This document shows, in pieces, positions 21,961 through 43,789 of a stretch of 64,000 nucleotides of DNA. The DNA is from Escherichia phage 1-6bf: the sequence record OR983334.1; one strand, 5' to 3'. The notes below the pieces were generated by a model. The model was given only the letters and a program-made list of their open reading frames with translations. It ran no database searches and was not told where the DNA came from. The position numbers and the translations under genes are program-made. Each line of letters begins with the position of its first letter. Position 1 is the stretch's first letter.

Positions 21961-21988
21961 TTGACAGTCTTTTCCTTTAATATATAGT
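21961..21988 (+). promoter_or_regulatory. Sigma70-type promoter for rightward early genes
   Basis: TTGACA, 16 nt spacer, TATAGT; about 40 nt upstream of the 22027 gene. Confidence 0.5.
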
Positions 21989-24007: not shown

Positions 24008-24036
24008 TTGACACCGAAAACAGCCTGATATATAGT
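24008..24036 (+). promoter_or_regulatory. Strong sigma70-type promoter P1
   Basis: TTGACA, 17 nt, TATAGT, then GAGCAT; A-rich upstream element. Confidence 0.6.
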
Positions 24037-24455: not shown

Positions 24456-24484
24456 TTGACAGCGAAAACAACATGATTCATAAT
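24456..24484 (+). promoter_or_regulatory. Strong sigma70-type promoter P2 (duplicate of P1)
   Basis: TTGACA, 17 nt, CATAAT, then GAGCAT; spacer nearly identical to P1. Confidence 0.6.
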
Positions 24485-26634: not shown

Positions 26635-26855
26635 TATTCAGTAGCAATTTTGGTAAGTGTCCTATTTGTGAGAAACATCGCAGCACGGGAAACCATCGCA
26701 AATGTAGTAAGATATTACAGCGCCAACGTGATGACAATCATTGGGATACTGTACACGCTAATCAGCGTAAAGAAGAAGTTAGAAAAATGGCTGTTAAAGC
26801 GTCCTTTGCTCAATCCACCCGTATTGAACACATCCAAAGGTATCAAGCATTATGA
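26631..26855 (+). CDS. Small Cys/His-containing protein (74 aa)
   Basis: ORF track; CPICEKHRSTGNHRKC. Confidence 0.3.
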   Translation: MIFSSNFGKCPICEKHRSTGNHRKCSKILQRQRDDNHWDTVHANQRKEEVRKMAVKASFAQSTRIEHIQRYQAL

Positions 26856-27061
26856 TCACTAATATTTCAGAGTTTAAGAAAGCTCCCTCCCGACTGTTAG
26901 GTCGTCGTGTTGTATATCTTTACAGCAACAAAGGTAAATGCACAACCGGACGAATTACAACGGTGAGTAGTGCCAATAAGAAACTACTAAAGTTGTGTGT
27001 AACTATGGATGACGGTACAATCCTTCTACGTAGTTGGAAATCGTTTAGTTTACTTGATTAA
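26852..27061 (+). CDS. Hypothetical protein (69 aa)
   Basis: ORF track. Confidence 0.3.
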   Translation: MITNISEFKKAPSRLLGRRVVYLYSNKGKCTTGRITTVSSANKKLLKLCVTMDDGTILLRSWKSFSLLD

Positions 27062-27960: not shown

Positions 27961-28350
27961 ATGTTGACATTGACTATTTATTATGAGGCAGGGAATCAGC
28001 CAACCGCATGTAAGGCTTTAGTTGCGGATACCGTGATAAATAGAATGGCCCAACGAAAACTGACCGCTGAACAGGTGATAAGACAAAAGAACCAGTTTGA
28101 GTGGATTCCGGTACTATTAAAACAGGAGAAACCTTATAAACGTTATGTAAAGCTGATTCGTGATAAAAATCCGATGACTAAACAAGCCATTGGAGAAAGC
28201 GAGCGGTTAGCTAAACGTGCCCTTAAGAAGAATTATGTTCCTCTGTATAGTGGGACTTACTTTCAGAGTAAGAGCGAAGGGGTGCCAAAATGGTATGCCA
28301 ATCCTATGTATTGTGGTGATTTAGTGTTCGATAATAGCTCTAGGGAATAA
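27961..28350 (+). CDS. Hypothetical protein (129 aa)
   Basis: ORF track. Confidence 0.35.
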   Translation: MLTLTIYYEAGNQPTACKALVADTVINRMAQRKLTAEQVIRQKNQFEWIPVLLKQEKPYKRYVKLIRDKNPMTKQAIGESERLAKRALKKNYVPLYSGTYFQSKSEGVPKWYANPMYCGDLVFDNSSRE

Positions 28351-28549: not shown

Positions 28550-28846
28550 ATGACTTTAGAAGTATATAAATTCCTTTTTGTAAGCTGTTTAACTATCAGC
28601 GTTCTAGGATTTATTATTCTCAGAAACAAAGCAGCAAGCTGGGAGAGAATGTATAAATCCCTAGTTCGAGTGGATGAGATGTATAATGAGAAAGTTAAAG
28701 TAACACTTAACGATCTTATTATGCAAGTAGAGGACAGAAACAAGCGTCTTCAGAACCTCAACAATGAAGTATTACGCCTTGCTCGTGCTAATGAAGACTT
28801 GCGAGTAGCTATTGCTAAGCAGCAGGAGATTAACAATGAAGCATGA
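28550..28846 (+). CDS. Membrane-anchored coiled-coil protein (98 aa)
   Basis: N-terminal hydrophobic segment then heptad-like region (NKRLQNLNNEVLRLARANEDLRVAIAK). Confidence 0.35.
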   Translation: MTLEVYKFLFVSCLTISVLGFIILRNKAASWERMYKSLVRVDEMYNEKVKVTLNDLIMQVEDRNKRLQNLNNEVLRLARANEDLRVAIAKQQEINNEA

Positions 28847-29093
28847 TATTAATACAGCCCCTGTAGTCAAGCAGCTGAAAGATCTGAAGGTGGGAAGTGT
28901 TTTTGAAACTGTGCCACCTAAAAATAAATTATATCTTACAGTAAAGCTAGATTCCTCAACCGTTTATTCAGCTAGTTGGAAGTCTGATGAAAGGGTAGTA
29001 GTAGATCTCACTTCGGATAGAATAACAATGTTGAGAAAAGATACTGTTGTTCAGGTAGTTGATAATGCTCGACTTACCAATAAGGTGGATTAA
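28836..29093 (+). CDS. Small protein, paralog family A member 1
   Basis: ATG with AGGAG RBS; shares DLKxGxVF and downstream hydrophobic blocks with seven other ORFs. Confidence 0.45.
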   Translation: MKHDINTAPVVKQLKDLKVGSVFETVPPKNKLYLTVKLDSSTVYSASWKSDERVVVDLTSDRITMLRKDTVVQVVDNARLTNKVD

Positions 29094-29095
29094 AG

Positions 29096-29332
29096 ATGAA
29101 AGTTAATATTAAATCCGATCGTACAATGCTTCGCTTAAATAACATGAAGCCGGGGGTTCTGTTTGAGTCTAAAGGGTTCTTTTACATTAGAACTGACAGT
29201 CTATACGCAGAAAATTATGTGAACTGTGTTGATGTGGTAACTGGAAAGCTCATTCCTATTAAACGAGATGAAGTCTGCCAAGTACGCAGTGATCTCCACA
29301 TAACCAATATAGAGGCTAAAGATGAAGATTAA
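29096..29332 (+). CDS. Small protein, paralog family A member 2
   Basis: NMKPGVLFE..FYIRTD..VNCVDVVTGK. Confidence 0.45.
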   Translation: MKVNIKSDRTMLRLNNMKPGVLFESKGFFYIRTDSLYAENYVNCVDVVTGKLIPIKRDEVCQVRSDLHITNIEAKDED

Positions 29333-29579
29333 TCTTGAAGTAAAGGAACCGTCTTTGTGTGTTGGTGATCTCAAACTTGGAGATGTATTCCAAATCAGGG
29401 AAACACGAACAGATTTCTACATGGTTGTTCAGCTATTTACCCCACAGATTGAAGAGACCAAGCCTTCTGATGGTGGTTGTGTCGTCCTCAGTCTGACAAA
29501 TAAGCAAGTCCTTAAGCTTAGATCGAAAAGCAAGGTTGTTCTTCTTCATGATGTTATTATTACCAACAAGGGTAAGTAG
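29322..29579 (+). CDS. Small protein, paralog family A member 3
   Basis: DLKLGDVFQ..GGCVVLSLTNK. Confidence 0.45.
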   Translation: MKINLEVKEPSLCVGDLKLGDVFQIRETRTDFYMVVQLFTPQIEETKPSDGGCVVLSLTNKQVLKLRSKSKVVLLHDVIITNKGK

Positions 29580-29798
29580 ATGGAAATTAAAGTAGTTGAG
29601 ACTCCTAAATATGCAAATGTGGAAGATCTTAAAGGGGGAGATGTTTTCTCTTATGATCAAAAATTCTGGCTGATGCTAGATGATGATCTCTCTAATGGAC
29701 TACGCAGGGCTGCCAATCTAAGCACTGGTTATGTTGGTAATTTCAATCCATCAACCACTGTTATGCCTCGCCCTGATTTGTATTTGACTCAAAAGTAA
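29580..29798 (+). CDS. Small protein, paralog family A member 4
   Basis: DLKGGDVFS..FWLMLDDD..ANLSTGYV. Confidence 0.45.
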   Translation: MEIKVVETPKYANVEDLKGGDVFSYDQKFWLMLDDDLSNGLRRAANLSTGYVGNFNPSTTVMPRPDLYLTQK

Positions 29799-29935
29799 CA
29801 CCGACTTATAGCCCTTGTGTTTATCAGAGGGCTATGTGAGGGTGTTCCTCATTAACTTATTAATTCAGGCATATGCCACACCGCTAGGGAGAGCTTGCTC
29901 GAACATCCGGTGCTAGACTAAAACCTGTTAATTTT
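29796..29935 (+). repeat. Intergenic repeat element, copy 1
   Basis: Shares TAACACC..TATAGCC..AGGGCTATGTGAG..GCTAGGGAGAG..CTCGAACATCCG blocks with 35771-35900. Confidence 0.45.
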
Positions 29936-30156
29936 CGAAAGACTTTCTGATATGTAGGGGTACGTATTAGTTTGGGATTCAGGAGACTTCCTAGGGGTAG
30001 GGAGTCTTCACCAGTTGGAATAAGAGATAGCTCTAGAACCTGAACTCTTAGGCAGAGAAGGTCGGCAATGAGTACGCGGTCAGGATTAGTCTACTGACTA
30101 GGGCTATTCCTTATATCAACTGGCAATAATGCCTCCACTAACAAAGAGAGATAGGT

Positions 30157-30297
30157 ATGAAAGTATCAACCAAACGTATGAACCGCCCTGAACGTATGGA
30201 TGCAGTAGCTAACGGTGCTCTGAAACTGGAAGGCTTTTGGATTCATGCAATGTCAGCCATTCGTAACAAGCAAGGTGGTTGGACGTATAACAGTTAA
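30157..30297 (+). CDS. Candidate small ORF (46 aa) followed by a terminator
   Basis: ATG at 30157; MKVSTKRMNRPERMDAV..; below ORF-track cutoff. Confidence 0.3.
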   Translation: MKVSTKRMNRPERMDAVANGALKLEGFWIHAMSAIRNKQGGWTYNS

Positions 30298-30306
30298 TAA
30301 ATAAAA

Positions 30307-30335
30307 GGCTGCCTTCGGGCGGCCTTTGTTGTTTT
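30307..30335 (+). terminator. Rho-independent terminator
   Basis: GGCTGCCTTCGGGCGGCC followed by TTTGTTGTTTT. Confidence 0.6.
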
Positions 30336-30378
30336 AATTAAGGGACAACTCTTACTTAAACTAACAAGAGGTGCTTAT

Positions 30379-30723
30379 ATGAGACGCATGGTTAAAGATT
30401 GGGTCACTAAATCAGGTCTTCGTGCTGTGATTATGCACATGAACGACTCCCATTTTTGTGGATATGTAGAGCTACCAGACAGCTTAAAACATAAAAACTT
30501 CACCGGATATAACGGAAAGGAAAAGGTTTGTTATGTAAGTGTTCATGGTGGTGTCACATGGCAAGACACCCTTGAAGAGATGGGTGGTTTAAATACAATC
30601 GGATTTGATTGTGCCCATGCAGGTGATAAGACACGGTTCAACCCTAACGGGGTTCCAAGAACAGAAGCTTTCTGCATCAACGAATGCGAACAAATGGCTG
30701 AACAACTGAGAGATCTTGAATAA
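30379..30723 (+). CDS. Hypothetical protein (114 aa)
   Basis: ORF track. Confidence 0.35.
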   Translation: MRRMVKDWVTKSGLRAVIMHMNDSHFCGYVELPDSLKHKNFTGYNGKEKVCYVSVHGGVTWQDTLEEMGGLNTIGFDCAHAGDKTRFNPNGVPRTEAFCINECEQMAEQLRDLE

Positions 30724-30901
30724 AATGTCTAAGCAAACAATAAAACATACGCAAGCTGGTTACTCTTATGTCAACTCCCCTTGCTGCGGTGCTCGTATTA
30801 ATCTGGTTAAGGAAGAGGTTCGTATCGTTCAGCGTGGCGCTACTGTTGTTCGTTCATGCTGTGTCTGTGGTAATGATATTTTTATCAAAGGTAAAGTATG
30901 A
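30716..30901 (+). CDS. Small zinc-ribbon-like protein (61 aa)
   Basis: CCGAR..CCVCGND Cys pairs. Confidence 0.3.
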   Translation: MNKMSKQTIKHTQAGYSYVNSPCCGARINLVKEEVRIVQRGATVVRSCCVCGNDIFIKGKV

Positions 30902-31149
30902 AAAACTTTCAAGCTGCACCAATCACTAAAGTGATCGAAGTTGACGGTGTGATGATGACTGTTCCTCTGAACACTCGTTACATTGCAATTGACAAGATGG
31001 GTTATGTATGGGCTTGGAAGATTAAGCCTAGCTATAACGCATTGTTTGATGAGTTTGTTTGCACTGGTACGTACAGTCCTACATTCTTGGGTTTGTTTAG
31101 TGAGTTTGATGGTCAGTATAAAATCATCACTCTCCCTGCTTGTGCTTGA
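30898..31149 (+). CDS. Hypothetical protein (83 aa)
   Basis: ORF track. Confidence 0.3.
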   Translation: MKNFQAAPITKVIEVDGVMMTVPLNTRYIAIDKMGYVWAWKIKPSYNALFDEFVCTGTYSPTFLGLFSEFDGQYKIITLPACA

Positions 31150-31156
31150 GGTTAAT

Positions 31157-31318
31157 ATGTTCAAGTGGCTAAAGCGTGTCTTTCATTGTCATGATTGGAA
31201 GATTATTAATACTCGCCCTCTGGTCTATACAGATTCAGATGGGAATAACGACAAGGGCACACGTTACGTTATTCAGTGTAAGGTGTGTGGTGATGTTAGT
31301 CATCGTGATGTAATCTAA
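31157..31318 (+). CDS. Small protein, paralog family B member 1 (53 aa)
   Basis: MFKWLKRVFHCHDW..CKVCGD; below ORF-track cutoff, supported by paralogy. Confidence 0.4.
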   Translation: MFKWLKRVFHCHDWKIINTRPLVYTDSDGNNDKGTRYVIQCKVCGDVSHRDVI

Positions 31319-31327
31319 GGAATCATT

Positions 31328-31492
31328 ATGATCAAATGGTTCAAACGCTTCTTTCATTTCCATGAGTGGGAAGATCTTCATACTTATGAACTGACGATCA
31401 CAAATAAACTTACTGACAGAGAGCGACAAGGGTTGCGTATCTACTCTCGCTGTAAAGTGTGTGGTCTGCACAAGAAAACAGATCTGATCTAA
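31328..31492 (+). CDS. Small protein, paralog family B member 2 (54 aa)
   Basis: MIKWFKRFFHFHEW..CKVCGL. Confidence 0.4.
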   Translation: MIKWFKRFFHFHEWEDLHTYELTITNKLTDRERQGLRIYSRCKVCGLHKKTDLI

Positions 31493-31500
31493 GGGGTGTT

Positions 31501-31710
31501 ATGTTCTTTCGTAAGAAAAAGCCCGAAGATTCTGGATGTAAACACGAGTGGGTGATCACTGAGAACCTACATATCACCCACGCTAAAGACACTCCGGTCG
31601 AGAGAAAAGAATCTCGTGTATCTCGTATCTGTAAACACTGTTTGAAAATAGAACAGCATAAAGTTCCCGGTCATATTGGTCACGATGTAGCCATTCGTAT
31701 CTTTAGTTAA
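31501..31710 (+). CDS. Small protein, paralog family B member 3 (69 aa)
   Basis: CKHEW..ICKHCL shares the family B motif. Confidence 0.4.
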   Translation: MFFRKKKPEDSGCKHEWVITENLHITHAKDTPVERKESRVSRICKHCLKIEQHKVPGHIGHDVAIRIFS

Positions 31711-31733
31711 ACAAATCTAGCACCCTTAGCTCA

Positions 31734-32174
31734 ATGGAGGTGGTATTGAAAATAGAGTTGGAATACCCCTTCATCAATGACTGGAGGTTGGGGTATTTAA
31801 GGACAAGTAAGGATGGGAGGAGGCGTGTTGACCTATTCAATTCTAACACAGATAGGACTACGATCTCTTATGCAAGGTATTTAATGTCTTGCCATGTAGG
31901 GAGGTATCTTACTGCGGAGGAAGAGGTAGATCATGTTGATCAAAATCCAACCAATGATGAGATATCTAACCTTCAGATTCTAAGCACAAATGATCACCTA
32001 AAGAAGACCTTAGAGAACAGACCTAAGGGTGTGGTCATTACTTTGATTTGTAGTAATTGTGGCACATCTTTTGAGAGAAGGGGTAACAAGGTCCACAAAG
32101 AAAACCAAAACCATTTTTGTAGTAGGTCTTGCAACGGTAAGTATTACTGGAGCAAGGGTTTCAATAATAAATAA
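31734..32174 (+). CDS. HNH homing endonuclease
   Basis: EVDHVDQNPTNDEISNLQILSTNDH HNH motif plus C-terminal Cys-rich zinc-binding segment. Confidence 0.7.
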   Translation: MEVVLKIELEYPFINDWRLGYLRTSKDGRRRVDLFNSNTDRTTISYARYLMSCHVGRYLTAEEEVDHVDQNPTNDEISNLQILSTNDHLKKTLENRPKGVVITLICSNCGTSFERRGNKVHKENQNHFCSRSCNGKYYWSKGFNNK

Positions 32175-32277
32175 GAGCTTCTAGCGAGGATGTATCTTCC
32201 CCGCCTTCTAAGCGGTCGTTAAAGAAGTAATTGGAGTATGCAGGTTCGAACCCTGTCATCCTCGCTAGAGGCTCTTG
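32172..32277 (+). ncRNA. tRNA-like structured element (about 20 bp outer stem, internal UCU-loop hairpin and T-arm-like hairpin)
   Basis: Outer stem AGAGCTTCTAGCGAGGATG / CATCCTCGCTAGAGGCTCT; inner CCGC-CTTCTAA-GCGG and GCAGG-TTCGAAC-CCTGT; no canonical D-arm. Confidence 0.3.
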
Positions 32278-32287
32278 GAGGTGTGTT

Positions 32288-32569
32288 ATGTCATGGGGTG
32301 GTGTAATATCCTTAATCTGTATCTTCCTTGTCTGCATAGCCCTTACAGGCTGCGTACAGAGCCGTCCTGATGGATGGTGTGCAGTAGCAGTGGAAGGTGT
32401 TTGTGTTTCTCGCTGGCACAAAGGTGAGAAGGTTCCTTCTGGTGAAATTGATATGCGTTACAGTGGTATCTCATGCCTGAACGGTGCAGCAGTAGATGAG
32501 GAAACTAAAACCTTGTCAGATGCACAGTGGTGTGGTGGTTCTGTAACAACAACCGGTAAGGAGTGGTAA
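32288..32569 (+). CDS. Small lipoprotein candidate (superinfection-exclusion-type)
   Basis: MSWGGVISLICIFLVCIALTGCVQ: hydrophobic segment ending in LTGC lipobox, Cys-rich mature part. Confidence 0.4.
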   Translation: MSWGGVISLICIFLVCIALTGCVQSRPDGWCAVAVEGVCVSRWHKGEKVPSGEIDMRYSGISCLNGAAVDEETKTLSDAQWCGGSVTTTGKEW

Positions 32570-32570
32570 T

Positions 32571-32819
32571 ATGACAGCTCATTATTGGAATACAAAGAAG
32601 CTTCTTGAAGAGATGGCTGGAGGTAGTAGGGTACAGCTAATCTCCATGCTTCGAATGGATGCTCGCTCCTTACGCTTCCAAGTAAAGATTGGTAACTTCA
32701 GTGATGGCCTTTATTACACGCTGAAGGAAAGGATCAAGAAGACTCACTTCATCATGTACGGAATCAAACCGAGAACGTACGTTAACTACATGTATTGGAA
32801 TACATGCTACGATAATTGA
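32571..32819 (+). CDS. Hypothetical protein (82 aa)
   Basis: ORF track. Confidence 0.3.
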   Translation: MTAHYWNTKKLLEEMAGGSRVQLISMLRMDARSLRFQVKIGNFSDGLYYTLKERIKKTHFIMYGIKPRTYVNYMYWNTCYDN

Positions 32820-32826
32820 GGTTATT

Positions 32827-33048
32827 ATGAAACTAGACTCTAAGCAGTCACTTAAAACCGCTGAACTGTCCACGCTGCCAAACGGAAGTATCTTTGGTCA
32901 TGATAAACACTTCTGGATTAAAACAGACATCATAGACGATGGGTATATTACCTGTGTCAACCTTTGGAATGGTTCAGTGGATGGTTATCGCCCTAGCGCA
33001 AAGGTAGTCCCTCAGCCCGATGCAAAGGCTATAGGTTTAGTTTACTAA
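32827..33048 (+). CDS. Small protein, paralog family A member 5
   Basis: TLPNGSIFG..FWIKTDIIDDGYITCVNLWNGSV. Confidence 0.45.
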   Translation: MKLDSKQSLKTAELSTLPNGSIFGHDKHFWIKTDIIDDGYITCVNLWNGSVDGYRPSAKVVPQPDAKAIGLVY

Positions 33049-33057
33049 GGAGCCTGT

Positions 33058-33231
33058 ATGAGTTGTTTTGGTGGCGGTGAAGTAGATGACGATGATGACA
33101 TGGAATCAAACGGCACATGTCCTGATTGTGGGTGTGAGACATGGGATGGGGTTTCTGTCTACCCTGCCTGTAGTTATTCACCAGTAATTTGTAAAACATG
33201 CGGTGATCAGCCGTGTGACCAGTCTTGCTAA
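33058..33231 (+). CDS. Candidate small Cys-rich acidic protein (57 aa)
   Basis: MSCFGGGEVDDDDD..CPDCGCE..CKTCGDQPCDQSC; below ORF-track cutoff. Confidence 0.3.
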   Translation: MSCFGGGEVDDDDDMESNGTCPDCGCETWDGVSVYPACSYSPVICKTCGDQPCDQSC

Positions 33232-33844
33232 GAGAATATTATGACTGAAGAATTTTTAAAGTGGTTTGGTGATACCTTCAAAGAGTATCTATTCTCTCCA
33301 GAAGACTTTGAAGAACTGAAAACCTACACTTGGTTGGCTTGGAGAGATAGCCGACGAGAGATGAATAAGTAATATCGTGAAGGATTCTTACGAGAGTCCT
33401 TTGAGATAGGACTTCAGATCTCCTATCAAACTAACATTCATGTAACTAGCCCATAAGGGCGTTACCCTTTAATAACCCAGCCCACTAAGGGGGCGGGAGT
33501 TTAGTGCTGGATTAGCATAACGCTTATTCCTACAAAGGCAACCGATTGTTAGATCTTACATGCAATACTAATTAATAGGATAAGGGAGGATTCGTCCCCT
33601 CCCCCTATTTATAAATTATCAGGAGAGTACTCTAGCTGATTAGCTGTAGAAGGGAGGCCGATATCTACGGCGTGGCCCAGAGCTAGTGTACTCTCCTGAT
33701 GAGGCACCTCCTCATCGTGGTAAGCTGTGGAATAATCTTTACAGCAGTTACTTGAAGTAGCCTGTACGGCCCTCAGCAAAGAGTCCGGACGATATCTGAG
33801 TGACTTTAAAAACAGATGGAGCCAGGTGGAATCCCTGGCAATTA

Positions 33845-33992
33845 GTTACAGGTATAGCTTATGAGGCTCACTAATGCAGAGCCTACGGTAAAGCAGTCGC
33901 CCGTGGTCAAATGACCGTATGCCCATTGGATGCATTCCTTTGGTGATGGCTAGGGAGTCCGAGCGTAGGTTCGAATCCTACACCTGTAACCA
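33845..33992 (+). ncRNA. tRNA-like element with canonical T-arm, acceptor 3' strand, discriminator and encoded CCA; 5' acceptor partner 139 nt upstream
   Basis: GTAGG-TTCGAAT-CCTAC then ACCTGTA-A-CCA at 33965-33992; complementary TACAGGT at 33847-33853; intervening region forms several hairpins but not a standard cloverleaf. Confidence 0.35.
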
Positions 33993-34020
33993 AATCGAAT
34001 AATATCTAATTGGAGGATGT

Positions 34021-34332
34021 ATGAAAGCACGAAGAACTATATGGACTCCGATGCAGATTGAAAATCTTCGGAGACTAATCAAAGAGTACTCGGTTAAAGA
34101 AGTTGCTCAGATTATGAATGTAACGGAGAATGCAGTTAATACAGCTTGCACTAAATTCGGAATATCAAGAGCTTCAATCCGAGTTAAATGGTCTGAAGAA
34201 GAAGACCAGTTCCTTATCCGTAATGCTGGGTTCATGTCTATTCAGAGAATGGCTGACATGCTCGGTAGAAGCTATGCTGCTGTACAGAACAGGGCATGTA
34301 TGCACCTTAATATTAGCCTCAAACTTAAATAG
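34021..34332 (+). CDS. Putative DNA-binding protein with two HTH-like repeats (103 aa)
   Basis: Two W..E..L.. helix-turn-helix-like units (TIWTPMQIENLRRL.. and VKWSEEEDQFLIRN..). Confidence 0.35.
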   Translation: MKARRTIWTPMQIENLRRLIKEYSVKEVAQIMNVTENAVNTACTKFGISRASIRVKWSEEEDQFLIRNAGFMSIQRMADMLGRSYAAVQNRACMHLNISLKLK

Positions 34333-34340
34333 GAATCAAT

Positions 34341-34589
34341 ATGAAGATTACTCACAAGAAAGAAGAAGTGACCACGGTTGATATCAACTCCCTTCCCAGC
34401 GGAGCAGTATTTAAATTCCCTGAGAGTGCTACTCTCTATGTTAAAGGGTCTGTGTCTGAAAGTCCTAATGTAACCGTTAACTCTGATCGAGCAATTACCC
34501 TTCGTTTATCCGATGGTAACGTAACAGCACCTTCTATCTGGTGCCGAGTTGTTCCTGTGTCAGCAGAACTTTTGGTGGATAACACATAA
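34341..34589 (+). CDS. Small protein, paralog family A member 6
   Basis: SLPSGAVFKF.. Confidence 0.4.
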   Translation: MKITHKKEEVTTVDINSLPSGAVFKFPESATLYVKGSVSESPNVTVNSDRAITLRLSDGNVTAPSIWCRVVPVSAELLVDNT

Positions 34590-34834
34590 TGAAGATCCTT
34601 CCCAAGATTAAAGATAAAACTGTTTCACTGGATACAATTATTCCCGGAAACCCTTTCGTAATCCAACAAGGTTTAGCATCGCCTCAGTATTATATGCGAG
34701 TTACCAATGTATCCAATAAGATCTCTGTCGAAGAAGGTTGGATTACTACAGTTAATCTTATGACTGGTGTTCTGGGTGTTATGAAAAGTGATACTCAGGT
34801 TGAAATGATTCGTATGTCAGTGGTTCAGGAGTAA
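34589..34834 (+). CDS. Small protein, paralog family A member 7
   Basis: IIPGNPFVIQ..WITTVNLMTGVLGV. Confidence 0.4.
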   Translation: MKILPKIKDKTVSLDTIIPGNPFVIQQGLASPQYYMRVTNVSNKISVEEGWITTVNLMTGVLGVMKSDTQVEMIRMSVVQE

Positions 34835-34836
34835 TT

Positions 34837-35085
34837 ATGAGCACTATTCATATTAAAGTTAAGAGCAAAGAGGAAACAGTCCTCCGTGTTAAAGATCTAA
34901 ACATGTCAGATGTGTTCACTCTCCAAGAGTGCCATCTTCAAAAGATTTACATGCTGACAGCTAAGAGCATAGGTTGTCAACCTGCTGGAGCTGTTAACTT
35001 AGGAACTGGAGAAGTTCGTCCTGTGTCTGGAGATATGGTTGTTGGTGAGAAGTTTATTAAGGCTGAGATTATTTTAACTTCATAG
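34837..35085 (+). CDS. Small protein, paralog family A member 8
   Basis: DLNMSDVFTL..GAVNLGTGEVRPV. Confidence 0.4.
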   Translation: MSTIHIKVKSKEETVLRVKDLNMSDVFTLQECHLQKIYMLTAKSIGCQPAGAVNLGTGEVRPVSGDMVVGEKFIKAEIILTS

Positions 35086-36528: not shown

Positions 36529-37728
36529 ATGTTTCCAGTAACATTAGAAGATACTGAAGGTAATGTTTTAACGGTCAACCCTCCTTGTTATGGGTTCCTT
36601 CAGCTACGCAATTATAACGGGGGCGTTGAGGAAGAGGATGAAGAATATGATGAGTATTACGAACCTAACATGTATGAGGCAACTCATGGATGGAATATGC
36701 ACGTTCGAGTGTGGCATGAAGAAGCTAACGTTCGTAGTGCTGATGGGGAAGAATTCCGATTAAGCAGAGAGATGGATATGTGTAAAATCAAGCATATCTG
36801 GAACTCTGGAACTCATATGAAAATGTTAGGTTTTAGACGTTGGCGCGATGAAAAGCATGTAGCTGAAGCTTTAAGTTGGTGTTCGTATGAAGATGAAGAC
36901 ACGCCCCCTAAGAATAACATTGAACGTTGGAACGACAAAAACCCTGAACATCGAACCACACCTCGTGCTGTACTGGAAGCTATGGAAGCATTTGTGGACA
37001 AAGATCGTCCCTCCTGTTTACGCTGGCACGATAAAGGTTTTATGGGGGTAGCAACTGAGAACATCCCTGCTGATCGTTGTCTGTTCTATTTGATGTTAGA
37101 TCGAACCTTCTATTGTGAAGATGAAGAGAGTCAAGTTGAAACCTTCCTTCATAAATGGTTGGTTGAAGGCTGGACAATCCTTCAGGCTTATGTTTACTCA
37201 CGAATGGTTAGTACCTACACTAACCTCTTGGGGGAAACGAAAGCAACTCTGGTTGGTAATGATTGGGATGCTTGTATCTTCCCAGCGTCGCTGTTTACAG
37301 TCGGCATGGCTGATAAATATGCTGAAGCATTTCAAGTGCCATGGCGTCAACAGTCGTACAGAGATGGCTGTGGTCACTTCCGTGATGAAGATTTTAAGTG
37401 GATTCATTATGAGAATGATGAAACAGCAGAATTACGAGTTAATAACTCAATGTTCTTGCCAGTGATGCACCCCGATCTAGTAGAGAGTGAATCAGAAATC
37501 CTGAAATGTGATAACCTTTTGGTTAACTTTGCTCGTCGTGTCTCTAAAGATGAAAGAACAGCAAATAAATTAGTATATGGCATTCGTGCTGAGACTAAAG
37601 ACCTGTTCAACATCTATAACATTGTTCAGCGATTTAGTAGTGGAACTCTGGACCAAAGTTCGGAGTATTCAGTGATTCCATCCTCTGAGTGGGATGGTGT
37701 TATGAGCGGATTATTTTTAGGAAAATAA
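36529..37728 (+). CDS. Hypothetical protein (399 aa), first gene of amidoligase cluster
   Basis: ORF track; Trp/acidic-rich; no motif recognised. Confidence 0.4.
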   Translation: MFPVTLEDTEGNVLTVNPPCYGFLQLRNYNGGVEEEDEEYDEYYEPNMYEATHGWNMHVRVWHEEANVRSADGEEFRLSREMDMCKIKHIWNSGTHMKMLGFRRWRDEKHVAEALSWCSYEDEDTPPKNNIERWNDKNPEHRTTPRAVLEAMEAFVDKDRPSCLRWHDKGFMGVATENIPADRCLFYLMLDRTFYCEDEESQVETFLHKWLVEGWTILQAYVYSRMVSTYTNLLGETKATLVGNDWDACIFPASLFTVGMADKYAEAFQVPWRQQSYRDGCGHFRDEDFKWIHYENDETAELRVNNSMFLPVMHPDLVESESEILKCDNLLVNFARRVSKDERTANKLVYGIRAETKDLFNIYNIVQRFSSGTLDQSSEYSVIPSSEWDGVMSGLFLGK

Positions 37729-37738
37729 AAGGTTAGTT

Positions 37739-38710
37739 ATGTCAATCTCCACAACGATCGTACCTCTTAACCTTCAACAGGATTTAGGGGAACAGAAGTT
37801 CTTAGGTCGTGGGTGTTTCGGTATCCACAACTACATGCAAGGCCAGTGTGTAAATGACATTAATGGTGAAGTTATCACGGAAGAAGGGCGCTATCGTCGC
37901 TTCAACCGTGATATCAACTTGCAACTGGAGATGTTGAATTACTGGACTCACTCTTTTCATGGTCATGTTACATCTGATATTGAAAAGAATTTGGTTGAAA
38001 CAGCAGACATTATGAACTCCATGTCTTGCTATCGTGACGTATTTACGATCACTTCAGCGAATAGTGTTGCTGTCAACCTTCGTGAGCATCCAGCAGATCA
38101 GATCTTCACAGGACTTATGCTCTTTCGTAGTATTCTGGAAGGGCAATATCGTGGAATGGATTTCCTAGCAGAAGGAATTGAAGACAGGGAAGAGTGGCTG
38201 AAGCGTAAACGCATCGGCATCGCTCTAGTGTTAGCTGGGTTGGGTCGTGACTTCTTCGGTGGATGGTCTCAACGAGGAAGAGCTAATGGGAGTAGCGAAA
38301 GCACCTCTATTGTTATTAACAACAATATGTCAGCAGCAGCATTCCTTCCTTTGGTTGTAGACTCTGATGAATACACGAAGCAAGTATGGGTTCAAAACCC
38401 CTTCGGTGTTGGCGACAACGAGAATGGTTATGTTCGTAACCATAACCAAGATGCCTTACGAAGATTTGCTCGTGCTAAAGATCAAGACCCGGACGAGTAT
38501 GAAACAATGTCAGAGTGGTTAAGACTCTGGTCCAACTGTTATGGTCACAAACGTGAATCAATAGACGACAAGTTGGGAAACATTACAGTACAAAACTTTA
38601 CATCCCGACTGATTCAAAGAACTGGAGCAGATTCCGGTCTTACTCTTGAAGAAGTTGGTAACACAATCTCATCTCTCTTTTCTGAACTAGTGGAGTATTA
38701 CAATGACTAA
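37739..38710 (+). CDS. Hypothetical protein (323 aa), amidoligase cluster
   Basis: ORF track; no motif recognised. Confidence 0.4.
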   Translation: MSISTTIVPLNLQQDLGEQKFLGRGCFGIHNYMQGQCVNDINGEVITEEGRYRRFNRDINLQLEMLNYWTHSFHGHVTSDIEKNLVETADIMNSMSCYRDVFTITSANSVAVNLREHPADQIFTGLMLFRSILEGQYRGMDFLAEGIEDREEWLKRKRIGIALVLAGLGRDFFGGWSQRGRANGSSESTSIVINNNMSAAAFLPLVVDSDEYTKQVWVQNPFGVGDNENGYVRNHNQDALRRFARAKDQDPDEYETMSEWLRLWSNCYGHKRESIDDKLGNITVQNFTSRLIQRTGADSGLTLEEVGNTISSLFSELVEYYND

Positions 38711-39509
38711 GCGCAAATTCCTCATCGGCTCTGACCCTGAAATGTTCGTTCGTACTAGCAATGGTATCATCACTTCTGTAGCCGGTTTATTAGGCTGCTC
38801 TAAGGACGATAAAATCGCTCTGGCTAAGGATGTTCGTCTCCAAGAGGACAATGTACTGGCTGAGTTTGATATTGACCCACAGAGCGGTTTTGAAGCGTTT
38901 AACGATAACATGCAACGTGGTATTGATCTCACCAATAATGTCCTGAACAAACTGGACATGGAAACAGCTCCTGGTGTTAGCTCTCACATCTTCACTGAAG
39001 AAGAGATGAAGACCTTTAATGAATCAGCGTTCATCTTCGGGTGCACTCCTGATTTCAACGCCTTCACTGGTCAGAAAAACCCATCCCCGACTTCTCAGAA
39101 TAAGGGACTTCGTACTGCCGGTGGTCACGTACATCTTGGCGTAGTTGGTGCTTTGGATATCACTCTGCAAACTCAGATGATGCTTGGTGTGCTGTGTGAC
39201 TACTTCCTATCCCTCCCAGCAGTAATTATGGACAAAGATACTCGCCGTAAAGAACTCTACGGTAAAGCATCTGCAATCCGTTATAAAGACTATGGTATTG
39301 AATACCGTTCTCTGTCTAACTTCTGGATTAGTGATCGTGAAAACCGTAAGTTTGTTTACGATCAGGTTGACAAGGTTGTTCAGCAATGTGATATGTCCAC
39401 TCTGATGGCATTGCACTCTCGCCTTCCGATTGAGAAGCTTCATGAAATCATTAACGGGAACAATGTTAAAGAAGCTGACCAGCAGATCAAACTCCTTCAG
39501 GTAGCATAA
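38703..39509 (+). CDS. Divergent amidoligase / GCS2-like COOH-NH2 ligase candidate (268 aa)
   Basis: LIGSDPEMFV .. GGHVHLGV .. YGIEYRS pattern parallels the neighbouring amidoligase; start overlaps upstream gene. Confidence 0.4.
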   Translation: MTKRKFLIGSDPEMFVRTSNGIITSVAGLLGCSKDDKIALAKDVRLQEDNVLAEFDIDPQSGFEAFNDNMQRGIDLTNNVLNKLDMETAPGVSSHIFTEEEMKTFNESAFIFGCTPDFNAFTGQKNPSPTSQNKGLRTAGGHVHLGVVGALDITLQTQMMLGVLCDYFLSLPAVIMDKDTRRKELYGKASAIRYKDYGIEYRSLSNFWISDRENRKFVYDQVDKVVQQCDMSTLMALHSRLPIEKLHEIINGNNVKEADQQIKLLQVA

Positions 39510-39518
39510 GAGGTTATC

Positions 39519-40136
39519 GTGAGCTTAGTAGCTGATTTTTCTCATTACTATAATGGTACATGGATTGCTAAACGAGCAGGTAATATCAACCTTCCATGTT
39601 TTGTGATTGGTGTTGAGCAGAGCGGTAACTTCCGCAGTGATGACTTCTCTCACGAAGCAGAGCAGGCTCTGTACTTTGTTGTAGAGCAGTGGTACAAGAA
39701 CGAGCAAGGGCATCTTCGAAACACTACGATGAATATCCCAGTGTTCGACCCAACCCTGATTCTTGAATCACCTGACGTTGGTTATCTGTTCCATAACGGT
39801 AACACTGTAAGCTGGACTCATATTAACCCTGTTCGCCAGAGAGCAAAGGGCTTAATGGGTAATAAGATTCGAAATGCTCCGGGTGTTGGTCGTGCTATCT
39901 CCGGAGAGATGGTTTACAGTCTGTTCAATCCTGAATTCGAAGGATTGGTTACTCGTTATATTTACATCAACCCTACAGATGGTAAGGTGCATTATAAAGG
40001 TGCACTGGTAGGACAAGTAGATCTGGAAGCACCTCGTGACTCTTACGGTCAGCAACCGATGCGACTTCTGGAACATTTTCATCACATTTCTGAAAACCTT
40101 AGCAATTACAATATTACGTTGGTGGATTCGTTATGA
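39519..40136 (+). CDS. Hypothetical protein (205 aa), amidoligase cluster
   Basis: ORF track. Confidence 0.4.
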   Translation: MSLVADFSHYYNGTWIAKRAGNINLPCFVIGVEQSGNFRSDDFSHEAEQALYFVVEQWYKNEQGHLRNTTMNIPVFDPTLILESPDVGYLFHNGNTVSWTHINPVRQRAKGLMGNKIRNAPGVGRAISGEMVYSLFNPEFEGLVTRYIYINPTDGKVHYKGALVGQVDLEAPRDSYGQQPMRLLEHFHHISENLSNYNITLVDSL

Positions 40137-41236
40137 CAACTGTAGCGCAAACTTTTGGATATCGAGAAGGTCGTTTAACTGAGGCGCATAGTTCAATTGC
40201 ACTTCAGTGCGGTGTCGGTATTGAACTTGAACTCGAAGGTTCCGATCATATCGAAGCAGATATGTGGGATTGTACAGAGGATGGTTCCCTGCGTAATGGT
40301 TGTGAAATGGTATGTTCACGACCTTACAACGGACAGGAGTTGTTAGACGCTATCAACAACCTGAGTGAAGCAGTAGCTGAATCGCACGCCGAGGGGACTT
40401 GGCGTTGCTCTACTCACGTTCATATGGATATGAGGGATGCTGATAGTAATATCCTCAAGAAAACCATTCTCGCTTGGACCTTCTACGAAAAGATGTTGTT
40501 CAAGTGCTCAGGCTACCATCGTTACCGTAGCAATTTCTGCCCTGCGTTTGCAGTGGTACAAGCACAGGTAATGAATGCCTCTGACGCATTTAACTACGAT
40601 GGTGAAGAGTTCTTCAACCGTCTGGTTCGTTCATGGGATAAGTATACATCCCTGAACCTTCTGCCACTTGCCCAATACGGTTCGATTGAGTTCCGTATCA
40701 GCGAGCCTAAGTGGAAACGTGGTCAACTTCTCAATCTGGTTAACCGCTTCTTGATGCTGAAGAAGCTGGCTTTAGATAACGCAGATATGAGCAACGATCA
40801 GTTTGTTGAGCATTTAAATACTGTACGATTTGCCCCAATGCTTCCTTACCTTCCTCTGGATTACAATCTGGATGAATCGGATTTGCATTCAGGTTATTGT
40901 ATGGCCCGTGATGTTTTGTATTGTCGTTCTCATGAAGTAGAACAGTCTGGTCGTATTCGTTTACGTCGAACCAACTCCAACGGAGATGTTCTTGTTGACT
41001 TGCGTCTTATGTCAGACTTCTATGGATTCCTTGGTTATGTCCGAGGGAACGCTAACAACTTGTATCAAGAGATTTTGGTTATGCTTCGTACAGCAGACCT
41101 ATCTCAAGTAAGACACGCTCCAGAACAACGTATCCGTGCTATTTTTGACTTACTACGTGAGTCAGGTCACAGTGATAGCAATATCACAGGGTACATTCCA
41201 GACCATCTGGAAAATCAGTTAGAACAAGCGCTGTAA
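40133..41236 (+). CDS. Amidoligase (glutamine-synthetase-fold COOH-NH2 ligase) (367 aa)
   Basis: CGVGIELELEG .. STHVHMDMRD .. YGSIEFRISE blocks; ATGA overlap with upstream gene. Confidence 0.55.
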   Translation: MTTVAQTFGYREGRLTEAHSSIALQCGVGIELELEGSDHIEADMWDCTEDGSLRNGCEMVCSRPYNGQELLDAINNLSEAVAESHAEGTWRCSTHVHMDMRDADSNILKKTILAWTFYEKMLFKCSGYHRYRSNFCPAFAVVQAQVMNASDAFNYDGEEFFNRLVRSWDKYTSLNLLPLAQYGSIEFRISEPKWKRGQLLNLVNRFLMLKKLALDNADMSNDQFVEHLNTVRFAPMLPYLPLDYNLDESDLHSGYCMARDVLYCRSHEVEQSGRIRLRRTNSNGDVLVDLRLMSDFYGFLGYVRGNANNLYQEILVMLRTADLSQVRHAPEQRIRAIFDLLRESGHSDSNITGYIPDHLENQLEQAL

Positions 41237-41282
41237 TCAATGGGTGCCTCTGACAAAGGGGCACAATTTAAAGGTTAATTAG

Positions 41283-41312
41283 ATGAAAGGGTTTACCCTT
41301 CAGGTGGATTAG
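41283..41312 (+). other. Nine-codon upstream ORF (MKGFTLQVD) ending in TAG, in frame with the glutamine amidotransferase
   Basis: ATG at 41283 with AAAGG RBS; TAG at 41310-41312; in-frame AGGTGG lies 8 nt before ATT 41316. Confidence 0.35.
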
Positions 41313-41315
41313 AAA

Positions 41316-43346
41316 ATTTGTGGCATCGTATTAGCTGGCGGTAATCTGTCAAGCACTGATTTAGACGTATTCAACCAACTCTTTTATGCTGGAGTATTCC
41401 GAGGACAACATTCCTCCGGTATCTTTGGTCAGCGTAAAAGCACTAAGGAAGTCTTCACTTATAAAGAAGCTCTTCCTTCTTTCGCATTCATCCTACAAGA
41501 TGAGTACAAGAAGCACACCACTGGTGAAACAGCTTACACTGTAGCACCTTCATGGATTGTTGGTCACAGTCGTCATGCAACGAAAGGTGCAGTTAACGCC
41601 AAGAACGCCCATCCTTTCCAACATGGTAACATCACTCTGGTTCATAATGGAACCTTGATGGACCAAGATCTGTTACCTGACAGCAAAAGCTTCGAGGTAG
41701 ACAGCGAGAACATCTGCCACTCTATTAACACTATCGGTGCAGCAGAGACTATTCAAAAGCTGGATGGTGCTTTCACCTTAATCTGGCATGATGCTTCTGA
41801 TAACCGCCTTCATATCATTCGTAACGAAGAGCGTCCTTTCCACCTCGCACGTTGTAACAGAGATTGGTTTGGTGCTTCTGAAGAAGATATGTTGATGTGG
41901 ATTCTGAAGCGTTCTAAGTCTCATAAGAACCGTATTGACGAGCATTTTGAATGTAAAGTTGGTACAGAGTATATCTTTGATATGTCAAACAACGGCATGA
42001 CTCTGGTTGAAGAGGTCGCCCACGAGCTTCCGGTTTTTACGGTAGCCAATCGTTGGGGCAGTTATTACTCGAACAACTACAGCCAAAGCAACTATCAAAG
42101 TTCCTCAAAAAGCAGTACAAGCAATCCCTACGACACGAAGCCGGGAGTGACAGCGGCAGATGTTCGTCGAAGAAACGCAGTGGTAAGTCAAAACAAAATC
42201 GCAAGTGATCGAAACATTGATATTCGCCGCGATATGACTGTGGAAATCACTCCGCATGAGTTTGTTCCTTATGCAACTGCTGGTGCTGTTCCTTCTCGTG
42301 GTAAGATGATTGGTTATATCTACGATGAGAAATCTCAAGAGTATATCGAAGGTGATGTCCATAACGTAGATATTAAGGCTTATCAGGATGCCCTGAAAGA
42401 CCCTAAAATTGTTTACCGTGGGACAGTATCCTGTATCTCCGAAGTTAATGCTATGGTTCGCTTAGTGATCACAGCAGGTCGTTTTGTTGACCCATCTCTG
42501 GAGAAAAAGGAGCCTGAGTCTACTACTGCTGACTTTGATGATGATATCCCTTTTGACATGAATGATAGTTTCGTCAACAAGAATGGCGTTACTATCACTC
42601 GTAAATTCTGGGAAGCACATTCTCATGGTGATTGTGGTGGTTGTGACAAACACATTGATTGGAAGGATGCACCTAAAGCAGTCTTCGCATATCAGTGCTA
42701 CTGGCATCCTGAATGTCTGGAAGGTTTGACTAAACCTAAAGAGGAAGAAGAGGAGGAGACTCCTATTGGTGTTTGTGAAATCTGTGGTGAAGTTAAAACA
42801 GAGAATGAGTTCGATGATGAACTTAGTCGTCTTCGCGGTGAAGATATCTGTAAAGCCTGCGCTGTAGAGGTAAAGAAGAAAGTATCTAATGCTACGATCA
42901 AAGATGGTTATGTATGGATTAAAGCAACAGATACAACAAACGCCCGTCGTCCTGAGTTTGCTTTACGTGTAACTGAAGATATGATTGGTCGTATGACTGT
43001 ATTACCTTCCTCAGCGAAACAGACAGGCATCACTCTGGAGGATGTTGTTGATGCTTATGTTGAGAAACGTAGCAACAGTATTTTTGCAATCTCAACTAAG
43101 CCAAAAAAGGAGGAACCTGCTGAGAAAGCAGGTGTGTTTCCTGAATCACGAACAACTCTCCGCAAAACTGTTGTCAGCTTCGACGGAAACCGAAGCACTG
43201 ACTTCACCAAAGCCATGTGGTCAACCCTTGGATACTGCTCAGAGTGTTTTAAGCAGATTCCGTGGCGCGATGCTGAAAGTTGTACGCTTGGTTCTATGAA
43301 TCAAGTTTATTGTAATTCTCCTAAATGTTCATTGAATAGAGGTTAA
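41316..43346 (+). CDS. Class II (Ntn) glutamine amidotransferase domain fused to a ~430 aa Cys-rich C-terminal region; start codon uncertain (ATT or readthrough)
   Basis: Frame reads K-I-CGIVLAGG..VFRGQHSSGIFG..VGHSRHATKGAVNAKNAHPF..LVHNGTL, matching PurF/GlmS-type N-terminal motifs; C-terminal part has several CxxC pairs. Confidence 0.55.
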   Translation: MCGIVLAGGNLSSTDLDVFNQLFYAGVFRGQHSSGIFGQRKSTKEVFTYKEALPSFAFILQDEYKKHTTGETAYTVAPSWIVGHSRHATKGAVNAKNAHPFQHGNITLVHNGTLMDQDLLPDSKSFEVDSENICHSINTIGAAETIQKLDGAFTLIWHDASDNRLHIIRNEERPFHLARCNRDWFGASEEDMLMWILKRSKSHKNRIDEHFECKVGTEYIFDMSNNGMTLVEEVAHELPVFTVANRWGSYYSNNYSQSNYQSSSKSSTSNPYDTKPGVTAADVRRRNAVVSQNKIASDRNIDIRRDMTVEITPHEFVPYATAGAVPSRGKMIGYIYDEKSQEYIEGDVHNVDIKAYQDALKDPKIVYRGTVSCISEVNAMVRLVITAGRFVDPSLEKKEPESTTADFDDDIPFDMNDSFVNKNGVTITRKFWEAHSHGDCGGCDKHIDWKDAPKAVFAYQCYWHPECLEGLTKPKEEEEEETPIGVCEICGEVKTENEFDDELSRLRGEDICKACAVEVKKKVSNATIKDGYVWIKATDTTNARRPEFALRVTEDMIGRMTVLPSSAKQTGITLEDVVDAYVEKRSNSIFAISTKPKKEEPAEKAGVFPESRTTLRKTVVSFDGNRSTDFTKAMWSTLGYCSECFKQIPWRDAESCTLGSMNQVYCNSPKCSLNRG

Positions 43347-43348
43347 GT

Positions 43349-43582
43349 ATGGAAATTCGTAAGATGATGCTGGATAACGTTGTAACTACTCGACGTATCC
43401 CGATGACGAGCACAGGATGTGATAACCTTCGTGCAATCCAAAAGTGGATGCAAGCTGGTATTGGTCAAGTACTTGAAACACAGGTTGAGGTTCCTTTCCC
43501 AACGGTGATCAACAACGTGCTTGCTGATTATGTAAAAATCAAAGGCATTAAGGTAGAACCTCATGTCAAATCTGGTTCCTAA
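43349..43582 (+). CDS. Hypothetical small protein (77 aa)
   Basis: ORF track. Confidence 0.35.
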   Translation: MEIRKMMLDNVVTTRRIPMTSTGCDNLRAIQKWMQAGIGQVLETQVEVPFPTVINNVLADYVKIKGIKVEPHVKSGS

Positions 43583-43787
43583 GAAACCAAAGATCACTCT
43601 CCTACAGTATTATATGGGAGTTCATATCGAATTAGTAACGGAGCAGCGAAAGCTGTATCCGTTCGCTTTCGGTCTGATTGATGCACCATCCGATGAAGTA
43701 GAGAACGATGCGTTCAACGACTACTTCGAAATTGAAGCTCAGATTCAAAAAACTCGTAACGAAATTCTTAAACTTAAAGGTATCTAA
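43563..43787 (+). CDS. Hypothetical small protein (74 aa)
   Basis: ORF track. Confidence 0.35.
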   Translation: MSNLVPKKPKITLLQYYMGVHIELVTEQRKLYPFAFGLIDAPSDEVENDAFNDYFEIEAQIQKTRNEILKLKGI

Positions 43788-43789
43788 CA

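Follow-up and report, generated by a model that had tools for sequence, protein, structure and literature searches.

Eight diverged paralogues of an uncharacterised small phage protein family form variable early-gene arrays in Escherichia phage 1-6bf

The early genes of virulent phages mostly lack an assigned function, and they are now emerging as a source of counter-defence and host-manipulation proteins. In the 64,000-nucleotide (nt) stretch of Escherichia phage 1-6bf (OR983334.1) analysed here, hereafter the window, eight short open reading frames (ORFs) raise the question of whether small neighbouring genes of this kind are relatives of one another and, if so, what a phage might do with so many versions of one protein. 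A preliminary description drawn from the sequence alone had grouped them as four tandem genes (array 1), a solo copy and three further tandem genes (array 2), a layout on the + strand that both the ORF list and the GenBank coding sequences (CDSs) bear out (Table 1). We show that the eight, each called here by its first position in the window, all belong to one uncharacterised family of phage proteins, about 75 amino acids (aa) long, of which they are diverged paralogues. The closest GenBank record, with 99.9% identity over the region 28.5-35.4 kb, is Escherichia phage 1-6af (OR983333), in which the same eight CDSs are annotated. It is classified under Gordonclarkvirinae; Kuravirus, the phiEco32-like prolate podophages, which makes the window a Kuravirus and not a relative of N4. 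A total of 174 phage records, mostly Escherichia phages of 76-79 kb, match this region. As far as the searchable literature shows, the paralogy is newly described, and the Kuravirus literature examined makes no mention of it among these genes.

The divergence among the eight is such that simple pairwise comparison captures little of their relationship: identities in a MAFFT alignment are 18-26%, and phmmer finds significant similarity for three pairs only (28836-29322, E 1e-5; 29580-32827, 6e-10; 29096-32827, 5e-4). Profile methods recover it throughout. When a hidden Markov model (HMM) built from seven members was run against all window ORFs of 40 aa or more (416 in total), the omitted member ranked directly after the seven training sequences in all eight such tests (28836, E 7.8e-8; 29096, 5e-8; 29322, 5.4e-9; 29580, 3.5e-8; 34589, 5.9e-7). 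Apart from 34341 (2.1e-4) the values span 6e-7 to 6e-10, with the best non-member at 0.03, and 34341 matches the broad family profile A3 at E 1.8e-17. Comparisons by hhalign between eight independent orthologue alignments, with eight early proteins as controls, likewise connect all the members: 28836 and 32827 act as hubs (84-99% hhalign probability), 28836 reaches the other seven at 47-99%, and the weakest member, 34837, stands at 47% (E 2e-4), against at most 5.6% for the controls. The broad family profiles pick out exactly these eight in the window at E ≤1e-13, with the next best at E >0.1. Two further ORFs, 18491-18658 and 26852-27061, which narrow profiles scored at E 0.03-0.06 and broad ones at E >0.1, were rejected as members.

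The leave-one-out HMMs, hhalign and the AlphaFold models discussed below thus agree that the eight genes are genuine paralogues whose products are predicted to share one fold; the opposite outcome, namely shared blocks of no significance and no common fold, was checked for and does not hold. The sequence motifs on which the preliminary description had grouped the proteins are real but degenerate. The Phe of the G..(V/I)F block is invariant and its Gly is present in seven of the eight, the MK start occurs in six, and the VNL.TG block varies widely (ANLSTG, VNLWNG, VNLMTG, VNLGTG, VDVVTG, VDLTSD, LSLTNK and LRLSDG). The conserved columns comprise G, F, L, G and V along with turn residues, none of catalytic type; the only conserved aromatics are F23 and one near position 29-30, and the family alignments contain no conserved basic positions. 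Isoelectric points (pI) range from 4.8 to 9.3, the grand average of hydropathy (GRAVY) is at most 0.12, and no hydrophobic segment in the eight proteins suggests a membrane anchor or signal peptide. The genes within the arrays are separated by 2, -11 and 0 nt (array 1) and by -1 and 2 nt (array 2), a tight packing from which they are apparently translationally coupled and operon-like. The family genes carry hypothetical annotations throughout. Some GenBank names for family members or their neighbours are misleading, namely 'DNA helicase' for the EcoN5 family homologue and over the same region in several other records, 'putative two-domain glycosyltransferase' (NJ01) and 'Endolysin' (EcoN5 homologue).

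Table 1. Family genes and other features of the window (positions are those of the window).
Feature	Position	Strand	Product or basis	Remarks
Family gene, subfamily S8	28836..29093	+	85 aa (93 aa from upstream TTG 28812)	first of array 1
Family gene, subfamily S4	29096..29332	+	78 aa	array 1
Family gene, subfamily S5	29322..29579	+	85 aa	array 1; 11-nt overlap with preceding gene
Family gene, subfamily S6	29580..29798	+	72 aa	last of array 1
Family gene, subfamily S1	32827..33048	+	73 aa	solo
Family gene, subfamily S7	34341..34589	+	82 aa	first of array 2
Family gene, subfamily S2	34589..34834	+	81 aa	array 2; ATGA start/stop overlap with preceding gene
Family gene, subfamily S3	34837..35085	+	82 aa	last of array 2; most divergent member
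Small helix-turn-helix (HTH) / sigma70-region-4-like regulator	34021-34332	+	103 aa; Pfam Sigma70_r4_2, E 1e-7	not a family member
Predicted sigma70-type promoter, near-consensus	21961-21988	+	consensus scan, 11/12 matches	
Predicted sigma70-type promoter, near-consensus	24008-24036	+	consensus scan, 11/12 matches	
Predicted sigma70-type promoter, near-consensus	24456-24484	+	consensus scan, 11/12 matches	
Predicted terminator-like GC-rich hairpin and T-run	30304-30327	+	consensus scan	about 500 nt 3' of array 1
Cell-wall hydrolase gene	27961-28350	+	Pfam Hydrolase_2, E 2e-7	about 500 nt 5' of array 1
Second small family, first gene	31157-31318	+		
Second small family, second gene	31328-31492	+		
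Second small family, third gene	31501-31710	+	69 aa	
Degenerate tRNA-like gene	32186-32264	+	29.7 bits (Rfam gathering score 29)	
ORF-free gap	33373-34021	+	650 nt	5' of HTH gene and array 2
Ligase cluster	36529-44986	+		3' of the arrays
COOH-NH2 ligase / amidoligase match	38703-39509	+	Pfam	in ligase cluster
COOH-NH2 ligase / amidoligase match	40133-41236	+	Pfam	in ligase cluster

Two AlphaFold models (pLDDT about 84) give one and the same architecture, a small beta-barrel of the SH3-like/Tudor/KOW type, whose five strands match several solved SH3-like, Tudor and KOW domains in structure comparisons; the second model adds conserved N-terminal (MKIxIK) and C-terminal strands on either side of the barrel core. 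We accordingly describe the family as having a predicted SH3-like/Tudor/KOW-type fold. The Pfam SH3, Tudor, KOW and DUF7244 models match neither the eight (E ≤1) nor 142 diverse members of the family (E ≤0.01), and in the same scans no Pfam family covers either set. No relative was found by sequence in the PDB, the family being without a solved structure, and the PADLOC defence models give no match at E ≤0.1. Orthologues of one group have invariant scaffold positions and differ mainly at three sites: residues ~6-16, the loop after the VNL.TG turn, and the loop, variable in length, that connects core strands two and three.

How far does this family extend beyond the window? When 1.84 billion representative sequences were searched exhaustively with the family profile (threshold E ≤1e-3), 635 clusters at 50% identity matched. 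Nearly all are free-standing proteins of 67-91 aa that align over their whole length, and a few are two-domain tandem fusions. Foldseek searches against models of viral proteins found relatives of the same size in N4 (gp21) and PaP3 (ORF65) and in phages of Proteus, Erwinia, Yersinia, Vibrio, Morganella and Klebsiella. The family profile matches N4 gp21 (E 3.5e-17), PaP3 ORF65 (2.2e-10) and LUZ24 gp7 (5.4e-14), the last of which sits in the LUZ24 early operon, over their full length. These three have the same length and predicted fold as the window members but are present in one copy per genome, against 3-11 in the Gordonclarkvirinae, and each is restricted to its own lineage (Enquatrovirus, Bruynoghevirus). 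In PHROGs, the eight are full-length members (E 1e-13 to 1e-47) of phrog_9955, phrog_16423, phrog_6570, phrog_7832, phrog_7431 and phrog_12612 (and phrog_8365), all of 'unknown function': 28836 and 29322 match phrog_9955 (the latter at E 7e-37), 29096 phrog_16423 (1e-47), 29580 phrog_6570, 34341 phrog_7832 (8e-28) and 34589 phrog_7431. The models of different members cross-match one another, but PHROGs keeps at least seven separate unannotated families, and the unity of the superfamily, its fold and its array behaviour are not recorded there.

Arrays of the family are not confined to the phiEco32-like phages. A 190.8-kb metagenomic phage contig (L021) carries five clear members within 2.5 kb (9738-12284), one of them a two-domain fusion, and two weaker ones nearby. 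Between these members lie genes for DNA ligase, glycosyltransferases, RNA ligase, single-stranded DNA-binding protein and a DNA polymerase III alpha-like polymerase; the contig also encodes Dam, and 6 kb upstream of the array it carries an R2K ATP-grasp gene. The occurrence of an independent array on this unrelated contig indicates that array formation is a recurrent property of the family. The arrays of the window represent an expansion, specific to its lineage, of a phage protein family that is widespread and as a rule present in single copy. A word-indexed protein search with a diverse profile gave only 14 matches. Two multi-repeat proteins from the exhaustive search, P0121 (3353 aa, with T/A/G/V-rich repeats) and P0128 (an RCC1 propeller), lack a match to the A3 profile and were set aside as repeat artefacts. 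The only clearly cellular, multidomain relative found, also one of the 635 clusters, is a Bacteroidota chromosomal gene (P0127; 3583-5019 in contig L019 and 8001-9437 in L020), in which a SprT-like metalloprotease domain is followed by five lysine/arginine-rich repeats of the barrel domain, each with an independent E of 1e-6 to 1e-9; SusC/SusD, LpxK and RF-1 genes lie nearby.

We then used the family profile to find members in the early regions of eleven Gordonclarkvirinae genomes and divided these into subfamilies by single-linkage clustering at 40% identity. Copy number varies several-fold, from three in LAMP and six in ECBP2 through eight in the window/1-6af, Bas91 and MN05 and 9-10 in phiEco32, KBNP1711, NJ01, YW01 and Ptacy1532 to 11 in EP335, and the eleven genomes hold 17 subfamilies. 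S1 to S3 occur in all ten Kuravirus and Nieuwekanaalvirus genomes and S4 to S6 in nine of these ten, whereas S7, S8 (found in five of the eleven genomes) and S9-S13 come, go or replace one another at fixed array junctions, so that the fixed slots can be told apart from turnover slots. Array 1, for instance, reads S8-S4-S5-S6 in the window, S4-S5-S9-S6 in Bas91 and S4-S8-S5-S9-S6 in Ptacy1532, and array 2 of EP335 reads S12-S11-S7-S2-S3. The S7 slot is empty or filled by S11/S12 in some relatives, and the Bas91 gene in it is 26% identical to that of the window; the solo S1 site is a tandem pair in three phages. The most reduced complement is that of LAMP (MG673519, 68.5 kb), from a Kuravirus clade of 67-69 kb, which lacks S7 and array 1 (the equivalents of phiEco32 gp113-115) and keeps S1, S2 and S3 only. 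Five of the eight window members are thus missing from a viable phage, and array 1 is dispensable for viability. These comparisons show that the family genes are dispensable and interchangeable among related phages.

A DNA repeat search between the paralogues found no long repeats, only microhomologies of 16-24 nt, some of them at gene starts. Two such pairs, 29091-29113 / 29317-29339 and 29319-29334 / 34338-34353 (83-88% identical), cover the stop-start junction and first codons (ATGAAGATTAAT...) of different paralogues. Microhomologies placed in this way could serve as substrates for the exchange of cassettes between phages.

The substitution pattern bears on both the reality of these genes and the nature of their diversity. 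Ratios of nonsynonymous to synonymous divergence (omega = dN/dS) were estimated by the Nei-Gojobori method from orthologues of at least 50% identity for seven members (28836 has no estimate), with nine neighbouring early genes as controls. Omega lies between 0.12 and 0.30 (29096, 0.22; 29322, 0.22; 29580, 0.30; 34589, 0.21), which indicates real genes under purifying constraint. Median dN is 0.08-0.35 (0.34 in 29322), as against 0.007-0.04 in the neighbours, and amino-acid divergence is about 10 times that of the flanking genes. However, dS is also raised 3-5-fold (0.67-1.47, against mostly 0.08-0.38 in the neighbours and 1.09 in one of them), and we therefore read the high diversity as that of old allelic lineages shuffled by recombination. 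The preliminary description had noted that such arrays often reflect diversifying functions. The family genes indeed carry the hallmarks of accessory, diversifying genes in their copy numbers, their many subfamilies, the turnover of cassettes at junctions and their divergence relative to the flanks; with omega below 1, diversification in the sense of positive selection is not demonstrated. Against this background, the idea that they are functionless or selfish filler ORFs, whose resemblance reflects shared composition or trivially designable beta-rich sequence, can appeal to their low identity and uniformly hypothetical annotation but is effectively refuted by the highly significant profile recovery against within-genome controls, the omega values, the confident common fold and the conservation across 174 phage records and 635 clusters, and we consider it scarcely credible.

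The setting of the arrays points to expression at the start of infection. Late genes run leftward over 1 to ~21 kb of the window and rightward genes begin at ~22 kb, where three near-consensus sigma70-type promoters are predicted (Table 1) that probably drive rightward early transcription through the arrays. They agree with the description of the start of the SU10 early region as one promoter plus a cluster of three. Matches to promoters of the phage-sigma (gp36) type occur in the window at chance level only. The Kuravirus literature (on SU10 and phiEco32) places the small hypothetical genes at this genome end in an early class transcribed by the host sigma70 RNA polymerase, transcription of which is later shut off by gp79 in phiEco32-like phages. 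In PaP3, ORF57-71, and hence the homologue ORF65, are chloramphenicol-insensitive early genes (PMC4707531). The earlier suggestion that the eight are early proteins therefore holds up, both from the block assigned in that literature and from the experimentally early block of PaP3. The HTH gene ends 8 nt 5' of array 2 and is annotated 'transcriptional regulator' in relatives; the module of this regulator with S2 and S3 is retained in every Kuravirus examined, the reduced LAMP genome included. Array 1 and the solo copy have no adjoining HTH gene.

What, then, might these proteins do? We tentatively favour, at slightly less than an even chance, a reading in which they are early, dispensable, non-enzymatic binding scaffolds with paralogue-specific, non-essential host targets, most plausibly components of immunity. 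Each paralogue would be a small binding module made at the start of infection. Through its variable loops and barrel face it would capture one particular non-essential host protein, different for each paralogue, and thereby neutralise or redirect it; parts of anti-phage immune systems are the most probable targets. The arrays would then serve as a stock of accessory genes in varying combinations, which recombination between co-circulating phages would reshuffle to suit their host strains. Array 2 may be under the control of the adjoining HTH gene, much as anti-CRISPR operons are under that of Aca proteins. The absence of catalytic-type conserved residues, the early context, the cassette turnover, the deep diversity of genes under constraint, the variable loops and the recurrence of arrays all speak for this proposal, as does the behaviour of the one homologue tested for toxicity: LUZ24 gp7 (YP_001671880) was among 13 early genes expressed in P. 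aeruginosa PAO1, PA14 and E. coli, of which only gp4, gp6, gp9 and gp11 were inhibitory (PMC4635203), and gp7 is hence not growth-inhibitory. Context for the proposal comes from the restriction resistance reported for the Gordonclarkvirinae (below) and, as a precedent in fold, from the counter-defence protein Nip.

Several considerations weigh against this proposal. The non-toxicity of LUZ24 gp7 is that of one distant homologue in another host. The predicted fold is a generic one, found just as often in nucleic-acid binders, and a conserved scaffold with variable loops would also be expected from neutral drift on a small barrel; moreover, pairwise omega below 1 leaves positive selection undemonstrated. 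The retention of S1-S3 in all Kuravirus and Nieuwekanaalvirus examined fits a housekeeping role better than one in an arms race. Finally, the BASEL-II study reports the Gordonclarkvirinae to be remarkably resistant to restriction-modification systems without a known inhibitor, with only Fun/Z affecting Kuravirus, but tentatively ascribes the restriction resistance to possible DNA modification, not to small proteins (PMC11990801). A bolder form of the proposal, in which the widespread superfamily of SH3-like phage adaptors would be a modular counter-defence toolkit, each paralogue disabling a different immune effector or sensor and the arrays being reshuffled at gene-start microhomologies, would explain the broad plating of the Gordonclarkvirinae and their resistance to restriction and most tested defences; we regard it as doubtful.

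Among the alternatives, the family might consist of small nucleic-acid binders, comparable to KOW, Sso7d-like, uL2 or EF-P domains, that would protect the incoming genome or tune early transcription, translation or RNA stability. The wide range of pI, the lack of conserved basic positions and the concentration of variability in the very loops speak against it, and eight or more diverged copies with free gain and loss are hard to square with one generic ligand; we therefore hold it to be unlikely. Classical takeover, in which each paralogue would inhibit one essential host process (RNA polymerase, the replisome, division or proteases), was part of the preliminary description's expectation and seems to us quite improbable. 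LUZ24 gp7 is non-inhibitory in three strains, five of the eight members are missing from viable LAMP, and RNA polymerase purified from phiEco32-infected cells had only gp36 and gp79 bound (PMC12276001). The expression of PaP3 ORF65 is anticorrelated with rpoS at 5 min, a connection speculative according to its authors (PMC4707531) and one of correlation only.

The genes 3' of the arrays suggest a further possibility. The ligase cluster there combines the two COOH-NH2 ligase/amidoligase genes (Table 1) with, by annotation in relatives, glutamine amidotransferase and ATP-grasp-type genes, and these genes are common to the window and the Bruynogheviruses PaP3 and LUZ24, a synteny that suggests common ancestry of the early/middle block with the ligase cluster in Kuravirus and Bruynoghevirus. 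The family proteins could then be partners or substrates of this module, for example as carriers or targets of a peptide-type modification. Both phage groups pair early-operon family members with the same downstream cluster, and an R2K ATP-grasp gene lies 6 kb from the independent array on the 190-kb contig. Yet the cluster is missing from the 14 kb examined for N4 gp21, the ligase genes stay constant as the copy number of the family changes, and the C-termini of the eight (…NKVD, …KDED, …NKGK, …LTQK, …GLVY, …VDNT, …VVQE and …ILTS) are unrelated and so offer no common acceptor; we consider this role very unlikely. The hydrolase gene 5' of array 1 sits among the early genes, a long way from the late lysis genes. 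It brings to mind stand-alone SH3b-type cell-wall-binding helpers, as proposed for the DUF7244 SH3 protein encoded beside T1-like lysis cassettes, but that notion, despite the SH3-like fold and the T1-like precedent, has next to no chance given the lack of Pfam SH3 or DUF7244 matches and of any hydrophobic segment, the early rather than late context, the needlessness of eight copies, and N4 and LUZ24 homologues with no annotated hydrolase among their neighbour genes.

The region has further features of note. The degenerate tRNA-like gene (Table 1) has the anticodon loop CUUCUAA (UCU, Arg); its D-arm is truncated and its variable region long, and a 20-nt inverted repeat (32173-32192 / 32257-32276) flanks it. 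Relatives annotate a tRNA-Arg at this position beside an HNH endonuclease gene, and ARAGORN reports no tRNA anywhere in the window. The ORF-free gap contains a motif, GTAGGTTCGAATCCTACACCTGTAACCA (33965-33992), that resembles a tRNA T-arm with acceptor strand and CCA, and a further 20-nt inverted repeat (33618-33637 / 33681-33700). The gap has no Rfam match at E ≤1, and its local fold is no better than that of shuffled sequences (z = -0.9); the motif may be what is left of a tRNA, or an RNA not yet recognised. Between array 1 and the solo copy lies a second small paralogous family. Its first two proteins, encoded side by side and 53-54 aa long, share the pattern (F/I)KW(L/F)KR.FH.H(D/E)W ... 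CKVCG and are clearly homologous (phmmer E ~1e-10), and the third has only a CKHEW ... CKHC pattern in common with them (E ~0.3). This family may be zinc-ribbon-like.

These observations change the status of genes that had been clustered in PHROGs only in unannotated pieces: at least seven 'unknown' PHROGs, together with N4 gp21, PaP3 ORF65 and LUZ24 gp7, are united in one superfamily of at least 635 clusters, defined by its predicted fold and marked by repeated array expansion. The superfamily behaves like a known type of locus, the variable array of early accessory genes, and points to eight genes that can be put to the test in a phage group whose restriction resistance is noted as unexplained, with LAMP as a natural deletion mutant useful for comparing function. 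Were a counter-defence role to be borne out, it would be a case of one scaffold with many specificities, useful both for finding immune systems and for engineering therapeutic phages; otherwise, the family would still be a clean example of how small accessory arrays evolve in phages.

Comparison with known systems places the family at the level of fold and gene arrangement. Relative to established SH3-like barrels, namely the uL2 C-domain, EF-P domain I, the SMN Tudor, the Spt5/NusG KOW, HspQ/YccV, VapX, the UvrD/PcrA C-terminal domain and CarD, identities are 0-19% and the second model has added terminal strands, so the likeness is one of fold without specific functional inference. Concerning VapX-type antitoxins, no VapD gene adjoins the family genes, whose neighbours are other members, the HTH gene and small hypothetical genes. 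The DUF7244 protein of T1-like phages is likewise a free-standing SH3-fold coliphage protein, but it belongs to the Pfam SH3 clan, is single-copy and is tied to the lysis cassette, whereas the window family has no such match and lies in the early region. The acr-aca operons and other counter-defence gene clusters resemble the arrays in gene arrangement: runs of small early genes that diverge quickly and are non-toxic adjoin a small HTH regulator, and close relatives differ in gene content. The acr loci usually hold unrelated proteins whereas the window arrays belong to one fold family, and the HTH gene follows in acr-aca but precedes array 2. A parallel in fold is Nip of Bacillus phage phi3T, an early counter-defence protein with predicted SH3-like domains whose gene is clustered with another counter-defence gene. 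Although we claim no homology with Nip, which has 279 aa, two SH3-like domains and an HU-like dimerisation domain and comes from a different host and type of phage, it binds and inhibits the TIR NADase SpbK, and thereby provides a fold-level precedent for a counter-defence protein that contains SH3-like domains.

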